From assembly GCF_030013205.1 (NCBI RefSeq), contig NZ_CP122648.1: a stretch of DNA of 64,000 nt. One strand, 5' to 3'. Every line of letters starts with the position of its first letter. Position 1 is the first letter of the stretch. Source of the stretch: Escherichia coli. GTDB taxonomy: Bacteria; Pseudomonadota; Gammaproteobacteria; Enterobacterales; Enterobacteriaceae. The notes beneath the pieces are model-generated. The model did no database searches and had not been told where the DNA came from. It saw nothing but the letters and a program-made list of their open reading frames with translations. The position numbers and the translations under genes were made by a program. Shown here piece by piece: positions 8,766 to 15,982 of this stretch.

Positions 8766-9074
8766 AAATTCTCCTGTAAAACGCGGAATATACCGTACCT
8801 CTTAGCGGGGAAAAACAGGGTTATGCGGCAACGTCGAAATTAAATGTGATCTGCCACGCCTTTTATCACAAAAGTGTCTCCGGAAGTACGATGCAAATTT
8901 GCCTGGCAAAATAAGGATAATCAACATATTACGAATCGCTGCACACCTGTGCTGATGACTACTACGCAGAGAAACAAATGTGCAAGAGAAAGCGCTATTT
9001 CTCCCCATGCAAAGAGTGAAAAATCGCTTTGAAAGGCCCTCATGATGGGGTTATATCAGATCAAGCGGTGAGAA

Positions 9075-9100
9075 AGCGTATTTGCACAAATGTGCAGAAC
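9075..9100. promoter_or_regulatory. Inverted repeat TGCACA-AA-TGTGCA just upstream of sorC; candidate operator
   Basis: Palindrome at 9083-9096, 17 bp before the sorC ATG; related CAAATGTGCA motif at 8975-8984. Confidence 0.3.
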
Positions 9101-9112
9101 CAGGAGGCGGCA

Positions 9113-10060
9113 ATGGAAAACAGTGACGATATCCGTTTGATTGTGAAGATTGCCCAACTCTATTACGAACAGGATATGACGCAGGCGCAAATCGCGCGCG
9201 AACTGGGTATTTACCGCACCACCATCAGCCGCTTGCTTAAACGAGGCCGCGATCAGGGAATTGTCACCATCGCCATCAACTATGACTACAACGAAAATCT
9301 CTGGCTGGAGCAGCAACTGAAGCAAAAGTTTGGCCTGAAAGACGTTGTGGTGGTGTCGGGAAATGATGAGGATGAAGAGACTCAACTGGCGATGATGGGG
9401 TTACACGGCGCGCAACTGCTGGATCGCTTGCTGGAGCCTGGCGATATTGTCGGTTTTTCCTGGGGTCGCGCGGTGAGCGCACTGGTTGAAAACTTGCCGC
9501 AGGCGGGGCAATCGCGGCAGTTAATCTGCGTACCAATTATTGGCGGACCGTCCGGTAAACTCGAAAGCCGCTATCACGTAAACACATTAACCTACAGCGC
9601 GGCAGCGAAGCTGAAAGGGGAATCGCATCTCGCGGATTTTCCGGCTCTGCTGGATAACCCATTAATTCGTAATGGGATCATGCAGTCTCAGCACTTTAAA
9701 ACCATCTCTGCCTACTGGGATAATCTGGATGTCGCCCTGGTGGGAATTGGCTCACCGGCCATTCGCGACGGCGCTAACTGGCATGCGTTTTATGGTGGTG
9801 AAGAGAGTGACGACCTGAATGCCCGCCAGGTTGCTGGCGATATTTGCTCGCGCTTTTATGATATTCACGGCGCAATGGTTGAAACGAATATGAGCGAAAA
9901 AACACTCTCTATCGAAATGAATAAATTAAAGCAGGCGCGGTATTCCATTGGCATTGCCATGAGTGAAGAAAAATACAGCGGAATTGTTGGTGCACTGCGT
10001 GGAAAATATATTAATTGTCTGGTAACGAATAGCAGCACAGCTGAACTATTACTGAAATAA
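9113..10060 (+). CDS. sorC: SorC-family transcriptional regulator of the sorbose operon
   Basis: ORF 9029-10060; start set at MENSDDIRL preceded by AGGAGG; N-terminal HTH (MTQAQIARELGIYRTTISRLLKRGR) plus sugar-binding domain; 315 aa. Confidence 0.8.
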   Translation: MENSDDIRLIVKIAQLYYEQDMTQAQIARELGIYRTTISRLLKRGRDQGIVTIAINYDYNENLWLEQQLKQKFGLKDVVVVSGNDEDEETQLAMMGLHGAQLLDRLLEPGDIVGFSWGRAVSALVENLPQAGQSRQLICVPIIGGPSGKLESRYHVNTLTYSAAAKLKGESHLADFPALLDNPLIRNGIMQSQHFKTISAYWDNLDVALVGIGSPAIRDGANWHAFYGGEESDDLNARQVAGDICSRFYDIHGAMVETNMSEKTLSIEMNKLKQARYSIGIAMSEEKYSGIVGALRGKYINCLVTNSSTAELLLK

Positions 10061-10291
10061 AAATCTTCCCGATGTTTACCGTAATAAAAATTACGGCGGG
10101 TCCCTATTATCTAAAATCAGGAGTCTGTTATGCAAACGTGGTTAAATTTGCAGGATAAAATCATTATCGTCACCGGCGGCGCATCCGGTATTGGTCTGGC
10201 GATTGTAGAGGAATTATTAGCACAAGGCGCAAACGTACAGATGGTCGATATTCACGGTGGCGATGGTCAATATGAAGGTCATAAAGGCTAT

Positions 10292-10300
10292 CAGTTTTGG
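10292..10300. repeat. IS1 target-site duplication, left copy (cagttttgg)
   Basis: 9 bp identical to 11069-11077, immediately flanking the IS1 inverted repeats. Confidence 0.85.
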
Positions 10301-10355
10301 GGTGATGCTGCCAACTTACTGATTTAGTGTATGATGGTGTTTTTGAGGTGCTCCA

Positions 10356-10631
10356 GTGGCTTCTGTTTCTATCAGCTGTCCCTCCTGTTCAGCTACTGAC
10401 GGGGTGGTGCGTAACGGCAAAAGCACCGCCGGACATCAGCGCTATCTCTGCTCTCACTGCCGTAAAACATGGCAACTACAGTTCACTTACGCCGCCTCTC
10501 AGCCCGGTACGCACCAGAAAATCATTGATATGGCCATGAATGGCGTCGGATGTCGCGCCAGTGCACGCATTATTGGCGTTGGCCTCAACACGATTTTCCG
10601 CCACTTAAAAAACTCAGGCCGCAGTCGGTAA
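10356..10631 (+). CDS. insA: IS1 InsA (transposition inhibitor / N-terminal part of InsAB' transposase)
   Basis: 91-aa [46 protein letters not shown]... with zinc-finger cysteines. Confidence 0.95.
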
Positions 10632-13487: not shown

Positions 13488-13497
13488 CGGAGCCATC

Positions 13498-14322
13498 ATG
13501 GAACAGAGAAAAATTACACGCAGCGATCTGGTGAGCATGTTTCTGCGCTCCAACCTGCAACAGGCGTCCTTTAACTTTGAACGTATTCACGGGCTGGGTT
13601 TTTGCTACGACATGATCCCCGCCATCAAGCGACTTTACCCATTAAAAGAGGATCAGGTTGCGGCGCTCAGGCGACACCTGGTGTTCTTCAATACCACGCC
13701 AGCCGTATGTGGCCCGGTCATCGGCGTCACTGCCGCCATGGAAGAGGCGCGGGCCAACGGCGCGGAAATTGATGACGGTACCATTAACGGCATCAAAGTC
13801 GGTCTGATGGGACCATTGGCAGGAGTTGGCGATCCACTGGTCTGGGGAACGCTGCGCCCGATTACCGCCGCGCTCGGCGCATCTCTGGCACTTTCGGGCA
13901 ACATTCTCGGCCCGCTGCTGTTTTTCTTTATTTTCAACGCGGTGCGTCTGGCGATGAAGTGGTATGGCCTACAGCTCGGCTTTCGCAAAGGGGTGAATAT
14001 CGTCAGCGATATGGGCGGGAATGTGCTGCAAAAACTCACCGAAGGCGCGTCGATTCTCGGACTGTTTGTGATGGGCGTGCTGGTCACCAAATGGACGTCA
14101 ATCAACGTACCGTTGGTGGTTTCACAAACGCATGCCGCCGATGGCTCCACCGTCACCATGACCGTGCAGAACATTCTCGACCAACTTTGCCCTGGTTTGC
14201 TGGCGCTCGGTCTGACGCTACTGATGGTTCGTCTGCTCAACAAAAAAATTAACCCGGTATGGCTGATTTTCGCCCTGTTTGGCTTAGGGATTATCGGCAA
14301 TGCGCTGGGCTTCCTGTCCTGA
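13498..14322 (+). CDS. sorM: Sorbose PTS EIID component (membrane)
   Basis: ORF 13468-14322; start chosen at MEQRKITRSDL after GGAG; ManZ-like EIID. Confidence 0.75.
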   Translation: MEQRKITRSDLVSMFLRSNLQQASFNFERIHGLGFCYDMIPAIKRLYPLKEDQVAALRRHLVFFNTTPAVCGPVIGVTAAMEEARANGAEIDDGTINGIKVGLMGPLAGVGDPLVWGTLRPITAALGASLALSGNILGPLLFFFIFNAVRLAMKWYGLQLGFRKGVNIVSDMGGNVLQKLTEGASILGLFVMGVLVTKWTSINVPLVVSQTHAADGSTVTMTVQNILDQLCPGLLALGLTLLMVRLLNKKINPVWLIFALFGLGIIGNALGFLS

Positions 14323-14373
14323 TTCTTCGCCCCGGCACGACTGCCGGGGCCATCGCTCAACATGAGGTGGTTT

Positions 14374-15603
14374 ATGAAAACAACAGCTCTGCGTCTTTAT
14401 GGTAAACGTGATTTACGCCTGGAAACCTTTGATCTTCCTGAAATGCAGGAGGATGAAATCCTCGCGACGGTGGTCACCGACAGCCTGTGCCTCTCTTCCT
14501 GGAAAGAGGCCAATCTGGGTGAAAACCATAAAAAAGTACCCGACGATGTGGCGACCAACCCCATCATCATCGGCCACGAGTTTTGCGGCGATATTCTGGC
14601 CGTGGGTAAAAAGTGGCAGCACAAATTCCAGCCGGGTCAGCGTTATGTGATTCAGGCCAACCTGCAACTCCCCGACCGCCCGGACTGCCCCGGCTACTCC
14701 TTCCCGTGGGTAGGCGGCGAAGCCACGCATGTGGTTATTCCCAACGAGGTCATGGAACAAGATTGCCTGCTGGCATACGACGGCGAAACCTATTTTGAAG
14801 GCTCGCTGGTTGAACCGCTTTCCTGCGTGATTGGCGCGTTCAACGCCAACTATCATCTTCAGGAAGGTAGTTATAACCACACGATGGGGATTCGCCCGCA
14901 AGGGCGCACGCTGATCCTCGGCGGCACCGGACCAATGGGACTGTTGGCGATTGATTATGCGTTGCATGGACCGGTTAACCCCTCGCTGCTCGTCATTACC
15001 GATACTGACAATGACAAACTGAGTTATGCGCGGAAGCACTATCCCTCAGAACCGCAAACGCTGATTCATTATCTCAATGCCGCCGATGCATCATTTGATA
15101 CGTTAATGGCGCTGAGTGGCGGTCACGGCTTCGATGATATTTTCGTCTTTGTGCCTAATGAAGGACTGGTGACTCTCGCCTCTTCCTTGCTGGCGACAGA
15201 TGGTTGCCTGAATTTCTTCGCCGGACCGCAGGATAAACATTTCAGCGCGCCAATTAATTTCTACGATGTGCATTATGCATTTACCCACTACGTGGGCACG
15301 TCAGGCGGCAATACCGACGACATGCGCGCAGCAGTCAAATTGATTGAAGAGAAAAAAGTGCAGGCCGCAAAAGTGGTAACACATATTCTTGGGCTGAATG
15401 CCGCGGGCGAAACCACGCTTGAATTGCCTGCCGTCGGCGGCGGCAAAAAGCTGGTGTATACCGGGAAATACCTGCCGCTTATGTCACTCACGCAGATTCA
15501 GGATCAAGCACTGGCGGCAATTCTGGCGCGTCATCAGGGGATCTGGTCCGGTGAGGCGGAGCAATACCTGCTCGCCCATGCAGAAGCAATTTCCCATGAT
15601 TAA
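14374..15603 (+). CDS. sorE: Sorbose-1-phosphate reductase (zinc-type alcohol dehydrogenase family)
   Basis: ORF 14362-15603; start at MKTTALRLYGK after GAGGTGG; medium-chain dehydrogenase/reductase (MDR) family with GHEFCG zinc motif and GxGxxG nucleotide motif. Confidence 0.75.
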   Translation: MKTTALRLYGKRDLRLETFDLPEMQEDEILATVVTDSLCLSSWKEANLGENHKKVPDDVATNPIIIGHEFCGDILAVGKKWQHKFQPGQRYVIQANLQLPDRPDCPGYSFPWVGGEATHVVIPNEVMEQDCLLAYDGETYFEGSLVEPLSCVIGAFNANYHLQEGSYNHTMGIRPQGRTLILGGTGPMGLLAIDYALHGPVNPSLLVITDTDNDKLSYARKHYPSEPQTLIHYLNAADASFDTLMALSGGHGFDDIFVFVPNEGLVTLASSLLATDGCLNFFAGPQDKHFSAPINFYDVHYAFTHYVGTSGGNTDDMRAAVKLIEEKKVQAAKVVTHILGLNAAGETTLELPAVGGGKKLVYTGKYLPLMSLTQIQDQALAAILARHQGIWSGEAEQYLLAHAEAISHD

Positions 15604-15762
15604 TCGCGCTACTTAACTCTGCATGTCGCTGGCTGGTCGCCGCGGCAACTTCGCGACCTGATGTGCGGCTGATTGCAGAAGCGGCACAATGTGCACGAGA
15701 AGGATAAAAAACATCAGCGCCTTAAGGGGCGCTCAAATTGGTGGCAAAGTGCACATTGTTTA

Positions 15763-15859
15763 TGCCGGATGCGGAATGAAGCTTTATTCGCCTACATAAT
15801 CTTGAAAATTCAATATATTGCAGTTATCTGGTAGGCCAGGTAAGCGTAGCGCATCAGGC
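15763..15859. repeat. REP-like palindromic elements between sorE and pepE
   Basis: gtaggccaggtaagcgtagcgcatcaggc and a degenerate gccggatgcgg...cgcctac unit match the REP consensus family. Confidence 0.5.
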
Positions 15860-15982
15860 AATCCTGTGTTTGTCATCAGTCTCAGCGCCTGTGCAATACG
15901 TGACATCGTGAGCCATGTCAGTAAGTGGTTAAATTCGCAGTGGTAGCATGCCTTCCGTGATTTCTTACTAACCGGAGAAGTA

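Follow-up and report, generated by a model that had tools for sequence, protein, structure and literature searches.

The window analysed here is a stretch of 64,000 nucleotides from Escherichia coli (assembly GCF_030013205.1, contig NZ_CP122648.1), and the locus in question is the operon for L-sorbose catabolism (sor) that it carries between the core genes rluF and pepE. The left flank, rluF (23S rRNA pseudouridine synthase; 7893-8765, minus strand), was recognised from its open reading frame (ORF) and from the RefSeq annotation of a 100% identical record, and the right flank, pepE (dipeptidase E; 15983-16672, plus strand), from its ORF, RefSeq annotation and the comparison with K-12. With rluF starting at 8765 and pepE at 15983, the interval 8766-15982 is exactly the intergenic region of both genes, and all the genes that a first-pass annotation, made from the sequence alone, had placed there were found between them on the plus strand. 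Over the surrounding 9 kb (7800-16800), the window matches the chromosome of strain P15-25 (NZ_CP080233), a porcine E. coli of serotype O139:H1, at 100% identity.

Genes of the operon and their family assignment

The operon begins with sorC (9113-10060, plus strand as all the following genes), which encodes a SorC-family regulator with a helix-turn-helix and a sugar-binding domain, as indicated by the Pfam model Sugar-bind and by a match to the SorC protein of Klebsiella pneumoniae. The next gene, sorD (10130-11713), belongs to the short-chain dehydrogenase/reductases (SDR); it is split by a copy of the insertion sequence IS1 and annotated in RefSeq as two partial pseudogenes. Four genes for a phosphotransferase system (PTS) of the mannose family follow: sorF for enzyme IIA (EIIA; 11723-12130; TIGR00824, 145 bits, cutoff 98), sorB for EIIB (12130-12624; TIGR00854 above cutoff, together with a match to the K. 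pneumoniae sorbose IIB), sorA for EIIC (12690-13487; TIGR00822 EII-Sor, 424 bits, cutoff 340) and sorM for EIID (13498-14322; TIGR00828, 472 bits, cutoff 293). The last gene, sorE (14374-15603), bears the RefSeq name L-sorbose-1-phosphate reductase, and its product has the fold of the zinc-type alcohol dehydrogenases (medium-chain dehydrogenase/reductases, MDR), with the N-terminal domain ADH_N of Pfam above its cutoff and ADH_zinc_N slightly under. This order of regulator, SDR dehydrogenase, EIIA, EIIB, EIIC, EIID and reductase on a single strand is the same in E. coli CFT073 and in at least 30 enterobacterial loci.

All four PTS subunits pass the cutoffs of the mannose/fructose/sorbose models TIGR00824, TIGR00854, TIGR00822 and TIGR00828, which makes of them a split, four-subunit system of the mannose family, and in the NCBIfam search none of them reached the cutoffs of the Aga (N-acetylgalactosamine/galactosamine) and ManX equivalog models. 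More specific evidence comes from proteins of solved structure. SorB shares 139 of 160 residues (87%) with the sorbose-specific IIB of K. pneumoniae (PDB 1NRZ, E 5.6e-91), the best match of the EIIB among solved structures, ahead of any mannose, fructose or N-acetylgalactosamine IIB; the match to the E. coli mannose IIB is far weaker (E 1.9e-49). In this line, SorC is identical to K. pneumoniae SorC (PDB 2W48) at 275 of 315 residues (87%, E 6e-184). These two proteins were compared directly with K. pneumoniae, and the other five Sor proteins indirectly through CFT073 (PMC2831201, Table 3). For SorD, the intact ortholog of O157 scored 500.9 bits against the sorbitol-6-phosphate dehydrogenase model NF004817 (cutoff 304). 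The name of SorE counts against our assignment: it derives from RefSeq naming and from orthology with CFT073 and Klebsiella, NCBIfam having no SorE equivalog, so that the search returned only a weak IolM match far under its cutoff.

Altogether, the sorCDFBAME organisation for L-sorbose recognised in the first-pass annotation agrees with the gene order, with the orthology of SorB and SorC to Klebsiella (the alignment it had called for gave the 87% already mentioned for each of them) and with the near-identity to CFT073; the outcome that it had named as fatal, a PTS best matched by the system of another sugar, was not seen, the EIIB being closest to a sorbose IIB. Its block of about 7 kb was right in gene content, although some 0.78 kb of it is insertion sequence, and its SDR dehydrogenase gene is present but split by IS1, which had been overlooked.

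IS1 in sorD and the predicted phenotype

The 5' fragment of sorD (10130-10300, plus strand, annotated as a partial pseudogene) comprises codons 1-57 and reads on for 8 codons within the insertion sequence before a stop. The 768-bp IS1 (10301-11068), recognised by its anatomy and by RefSeq annotation, is oriented like the operon and is followed by the 3' fragment (11069-11713, plus strand), the second partial SDR, in which a 153-aa C-terminal ORF remains. Within the element, also on the plus strand, are insA (10356-10631), the insB frame (10550-11053) and the A6C frameshift motif at 10607. Its ends, GGTGATGCTGCCAACTTACTGAT and ATCAGTAAGTTGGAGTCATTACC, are the characteristic ones, with terminal 30-mers that agree as imperfect inverted repeats at 22 of 30 positions, and a perfect 9-bp target duplication, CAGTTTTGG, is found on both sides (10292-10300 and 11069-11077). 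The size of about 768 bp, the terminal inverted repeats, the insA/insB' frameshift site and the duplication thus all correspond to IS1. The window copy is ~93-96% identical to IS1A, IS1B and other IS1 elements among the lower-ranked matches listed, with nothing unusual about it. When IS1 and one copy of the duplication are removed, an uninterrupted SDR gene of 268 codons is restored, whose product is 98.1% identical to CFT073 SorD. Without an intact sorD, the locus is a sor operon by descent that carries a disrupted copy of this gene.

Of the 5,426 complete E. coli genomes searched, a clinically biased collection whose counts are not population frequencies, only 17 fully match a 160-bp probe across the left junction of sorD::IS1. 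All 17 come from pig or wild boar, with serotype O139:H1 wherever one is stated, and porcine 'ETEC' (enterotoxigenic E. coli) strains are included. Because the junction is so rare and confined to swine, the insertion in sorD must be considered recent and lineage-specific. As a separate observation, IS1 matches about 11-21 places per chromosome in the closest genomes (NZ_CP080233 and relatives). This indicates that IS1 has expanded in the porcine O139:H1/ETEC lineage, and sorD::IS1 would be one product of the expansion.

Classically, IS1 insertions have polar effects whichever way the element is oriented. The present one would destroy SorD, leaving the window sorD as a pseudogene because the gene is split after codon 57, and, owing to this polarity, it probably lowers transcription, and with it expression, of the downstream genes sorFBAME. 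A clean deletion of sorD impairs growth of CFT073 on sorbose (PMC13410766). In the window, SorD is cut to 57 native residues and the 3' fragment lacks residues 1-57, within which the N-terminal nucleotide-binding region begins. From the truncation of SorD, the phenotype of the CFT073 deletion and the polarity of IS1, the pig-associated lineage is predicted to be Sor-negative, that is, probably incapable of growth on L-sorbose. Sorbose belongs to the panel of tests in a published study of oedema-disease strains.

Two points weigh against this prediction. The polarity of IS1 is assumed here from classical knowledge, and SorD could in principle be replaced by SrlD, the housekeeping glucitol-6-phosphate dehydrogenase, a second enzyme of this activity being normal in E. 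coli. An operon that works despite IS1 would then obtain its dehydrogenase from SrlD or from the 153-aa C-terminal ORF of SorD, with sorFBAME driven by read-through or by outward transcription from the element, which is oriented as the operon; the other six sor genes, all of full length and with products 96-100% identical to functional CFT073 proteins, are also compatible with such a scenario. We nevertheless regard it as unlikely, given that deletion of sorD alone was enough to impair the growth of CFT073, that the 3' ORF, separated from residues 1-57, lacks the N-terminal part of the SDR fold, which binds the nucleotide, and that IS1 is classically polar either way. The annotation of this locus should read disrupted, sorD::IS1, since screens based on gene presence would wrongly score these strains as sorbose-positive.

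Presence and absence of the operon in E. coli

In K-12 MG1655 the spacer between rluF and pepE is 211 bp long, which bears out the first-pass annotation, where both genes are given as nearly adjacent there, and the alignment of the K-12 interval that it had proposed revealed no sor genes but 86 bp of filler. The homology between K-12 and the window, with 98.9% identity on the rluF side, ends at 8800 and restarts at 15893 (BLAST of the K-12 spacer). The differing segment (8801-15892, plus strand) thus amounts to 7,092 bp in the window (6,315 bp once IS1 and one copy of the duplication are subtracted), in place of the 86 bp of K-12. When the operon was scored at 80% or more of a 9-kb probe in the genomes of our survey, 2,865 of the 5,426 carried it and 2,557 had the K-12-type empty allele, which leaves four unaccounted for and describes a clean two-allele polymorphism; the content had been rightly predicted to vary among strains. 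A published survey of 44,208 genomes reported the operon in more than 86% of the genomes of every phylogroup except A (9.6%) and B1 (12.1%) (PMC12817954).

We are confident that the segment 8801-15892 is the native, chromosomal E. coli operon sorC-sorD-sorF-sorB-sorA-sorM-sorE with a sorD disrupted by IS1; its absence from other strains would have come about by loss or replacement. One line of support is the distribution of the locus beyond the species. A scan for SorE with one genome per species returned 80 loci, among which the order yjbD-rluF-sorCDFBAME-...-pepE-yjbB, or rluF...yjbB without pepE, is widespread. The operon occupies the rluF-pepE/yjbB position in at least six genera, Escherichia, Pseudocitrobacter, Citrobacter, Klebsiella, Raoultella and Enterobacter. 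Examples within the first of them are E. whittamii and Escherichia sp. MOD1-EC7003, together with an E. albertii contig that covers only the part from sorA to yjbB; the others include 3 Pseudocitrobacter, 6 Citrobacter, 5 Klebsiella, 4 Raoultella and several Enterobacter genomes, and the arrangement is also found in Cedecea. Between E. coli and Klebsiella/Raoultella, the Sor proteins are ~75-96% identical and RluF, PepE and YjbB 89-94%, a divergence of the same order. In other Enterobacterales (Pantoea, Erwinia and Mangrovibacter) the operon lies in other contexts, and more diverged versions, again in other contexts, are found in Gilliamella and Enterococcus. Because the rluF-sor-pepE/yjbB arrangement is common to at least six enterobacterial genera, K-12 would lack the operon by loss, and the parsimonious reading is that the locus is old and was inherited vertically, some E. 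coli having lost it. The polymorphism would then reflect an old loss or replacement allele of the K-12 type, not the insertion of an island.

The opposite polarity, with sor inserted between rluF and pepE in the lineage of this strain as a horizontally acquired island and K-12 keeping the ancestral empty site, finds some encouragement in the fact that the operon is missing from roughly every second complete E. coli genome and in the repetitive elements at one of its borders (see below). The first-pass annotation had in fact spoken of an accessory island, which did not hold in the sense of inserted foreign DNA, and the comparison of base composition and codon usage that it suggested disclosed no difference from the flanks. 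The block has a GC content of 51.3%, its flanks have 50.3% and 54.7% and the window 52.5%, and GC at third codon positions (GC3) is 0.50-0.66 against 0.53-0.63, which we judged flank-like. No tRNA gene was found in window positions 5000-20000, no direct repeat of 8 bp or more at the borders (the longest shared word has 7 bp), and no integrase among the mobility genes sought in the block, where the only such element is the IS1 of sorD with its own target duplication. Together with the shared position and order in at least six genera at a divergence comparable to that of the flanking genes, with the presence of the operon in E. whittamii, E. albertii and MOD1-EC7003, and with a published absence that concentrates in phylogroups A and B1 (PMC12817954), these results make the gain of an island very improbable.

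Some observations do not fit easily with simple vertical descent and loss, and they lend the island a measure of support. A conserved position could also result from transfer by homologous recombination through the conserved flanks. In this regard, three Pseudocitrobacter loci (L006, L007 and L077, ~4000-12000) have YjbD, RluF and Sor proteins mostly 94-99% identical to those of E. coli (SorF 89-91%), whereas the outer PepE (86-87%) and LysC (90-91%) are much more diverged. Such closeness suggests an exchange of the rluF-sor block between genera by recombination, and thus a certain mobility of the block.

The K-12 filler offers a second difficulty. It corresponds to positions 36-121 of the K-12 spacer (L004 1734-1819, reverse strand) and was compared with window 8801-8835 and 15880-15892. 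Its outer ~30 bp on the left and ~10 bp on the right are, in short alignments, closer to the junctions of Citrobacter and Klebsiella than to those of sor+ E. coli: by BLAST, identity is 82% with Klebsiella over spacer positions 1-51 and 80-83% with Citrobacter over positions 14-59, whereas the alignments to E. coli sor+ loci end at position 35. The central ~46 bp match nothing among the sequences fetched. Local alignment of the filler to the sor+ segment of the window gave a score of 11, against 11.7 +/- 1.4 for shuffled sequences, that is, no detectable homology. We rejected the idea that the filler simply marks a deletion of the sor+ allele now present in E. coli, given the lack of significant similarity between both. 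These short alignments suggest a great age of both alleles or the import of one of them from a different lineage. For this locus we still favour differential loss of the ancestral operon over the gain of an island.

Remnant gene, putative control region and repeats

Downstream of sorE lies the remnant of an eighth gene, the shikimate-dehydrogenase-like sdhL (15596-15707, 112 bp, plus strand), delimited by alignment to the intact gene of another locus (L008). Only the 5' and 3' ends are left around an internal deletion of 701 bp, whose junction is the same in O157 and CFT073, and codon 7 has changed from CAA to the stop TAA. The intact gene has 270 codons and comes right after sorE, its ATG overlapping the sorE stop (ATGATTAA); it is present in some E. 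coli (177 of the 5,426 complete genomes) and in nearly all other genera sampled. Its product matches HI0607 of Haemophilus influenzae (PDB 1NPY, E 1e-111) and the model NF009202 (461 bits, cutoff 306). To our knowledge, the physiological substrate of the HI0607 class is still not known. Among six sequence types (STs), sdhL was described as unique to ST648, where it was listed as an ST-specific insertion and found to be induced during growth on sorbose (PMC12817954). The distribution of the gene across genera indicates an ancestral sdhL that most E. coli have lost by deletion. Since CFT073 carries the deleted form, sdhL is dispensable for growth on sorbose. It is conceivable, and we put it forward only tentatively, that the ancestral enterobacterial sor operon had eight genes including sdhL, that SdhL acts on a sorbose-related compound and that the ST648 'insertion' is the ancestral state; a gene published as an addition specific to ST648 would then be an ancestral one.

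The 347-bp spacer between rluF and sorC was aligned from 11 taxa, and its length and several blocks are kept in Escherichia, Pseudocitrobacter, Citrobacter, Klebsiella and Raoultella. This cross-genus conservation delimits a putative control region at 8845-9107 (plus strand), which includes the conserved motifs TGTGATCTGCC...ACAAAAGTGT (8845-8877), GCACAnnnGTGC (8941-8952) and CAAATGTGCAA (8975-8985), a possible -35 box TTGAAA (9029), a possible -10 and start region GTTATATCAGATCA (9050-9063), the inverted repeat TTGCACAAATGTGCA (9082-9096) and a ribosome-binding site AGGAGG (9102-9107). GCACA/TGTGC motifs recur at 8941-8952, 8975-8985 and 9082-9096, and positions 9029-9058 show the arrangement TTGAAA-N17-TATATC. 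We infer from their conservation that these blocks are candidates for the sor promoter and the SorC operators, and transcription of the operon would run rightward from a promoter in front of sorC that SorC controls. A consensus promoter scan found none upstream of sorC, the counts of promoter and terminator matches being at or below the shuffled expectation.

At the other end, and still inside the variable segment, two repetitive extragenic palindromic (REP) elements (15763-15795 and 15831-15860) form an inverted pair similar to a bacterial interspersed mosaic element (BIME). The second copy has 2 mismatches to a REP consensus and recurs at a median of 12 places per genome (E <= 1e-3) in 5,425 of the 5,426 E. 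coli genomes. REP/BIME sequences are imperfect palindromes of ~35 bp that recur many times in the intergenic DNA of a genome, frequently as inverted pairs, and both the pairing and the genome-wide recurrence confirm the earlier mention of REP-like elements at the pepE-side boundary. An Rfam search of 7500-17000 at E <= 0.1 returned nothing inside the block; its only match, sub-threshold and on both strands, was to the REP-derived family naRNA4 at 16679-16746, between pepE and yjbB (43.7 bits, gathering threshold 59.5), probably another REP/BIME cluster.

Comparison with known sorbose and mannose systems

Published work already covers the sor operon and its pathway, places the operon near metH and iclR on the map and describes how unevenly it is distributed among E. 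coli lineages. In the accepted pathway, the PTS formed by SorF, SorB, SorA and SorM takes up L-sorbose as L-sorbose-1-phosphate, SorE reduces it to D-glucitol-6-phosphate, and SorD oxidises the latter to D-fructose-6-phosphate, which enters glycolysis (PMC13410766; PMC2831201). SorC controls the operon both positively and negatively, according to Wöhrl et al. (1990) as cited in PMC12817954, and induction by sorbose as well as sorAM and sorE mutants have been documented in ST131 and ST648 (PMC12817954). The operon was recently put forward as a marker of fitness and virulence, and the present locus matters little beyond its correct annotation.

Among E. coli systems, manXYZ belongs to the same mannose-class PTS family with components EIIA, EIIB, EIIC and EIID, and the window EIIB does match the IIB of ManX, as already described. 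The sor system differs in that EIIA and EIIB are separate and not fused, in the linkage of its genes to SorC, SorD and SorE, and in that its proteins, with 211 and 64.5 bits, stay below the ManX equivalog cutoff of 400. That the operon serves another substrate (mannose, fructoselysine or N-acetylgalactosamine) and merely resembles sor would fit the generic 'mannose/fructose/sorbose' nature of the NCBIfam subfamily models that scored above cutoff, but genetic work published on the orthologous locus effectively refutes this, since a CFT073 fragment confers growth on sorbose (PMC2831201) and sorAM and sorE mutants and induction by sorbose are known from ST131/ST648 (PMC12817954), besides the far better match of the EIIB to the sorbose IIB than to those of mannose, fructose and N-acetylgalactosamine and the orthology of the regulator to SorC.

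The closest characterised relative is the locus c4981-c4987 of CFT073, whose sor fragment, cloned in DH5alpha, allowed growth on L-sorbose (PMC2831201). The window block without IS1 is collinear with it; a 6.44-kb alignment shows 97.2% DNA identity and 2 gap positions, and protein identity is 98.7% (SorC), 98.1% (SorD), 96.3% (SorF), 100% (SorB), 97.4% (SorA), 98.5% (SorM) and 99.0% (SorE). The primers published for the cloning match the window at 15604-15633 without mismatches and at 8767-8794 with 1 mismatch (PMC2831201). CFT073 has the same seven genes in the same order, at the same pepE-rluF site near metH and iclR and with the same sdhL deletion junction, and differs in that its sorD is free of the IS1 present in the window. 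A more distant counterpart is sorCDFBAME of K. pneumoniae, known from the work of Sprenger, Wöhrl, Wehmeier and Lengeler, with the same order and pathway and with SorB and SorC at the 87% identity given before; at the DNA level, the CFT073 and Klebsiella sor sequences are ~78% identical (PMC2831201). In Klebsiella grimontii, K. michiganensis, K. oxytoca, K. spallanzanii and K. indica the operon adjoins rluF as it does in the window, whereas the Klebsiella and Citrobacter loci, unlike the window, retain an intact sdhL and extra DNA between sorE and pepE.

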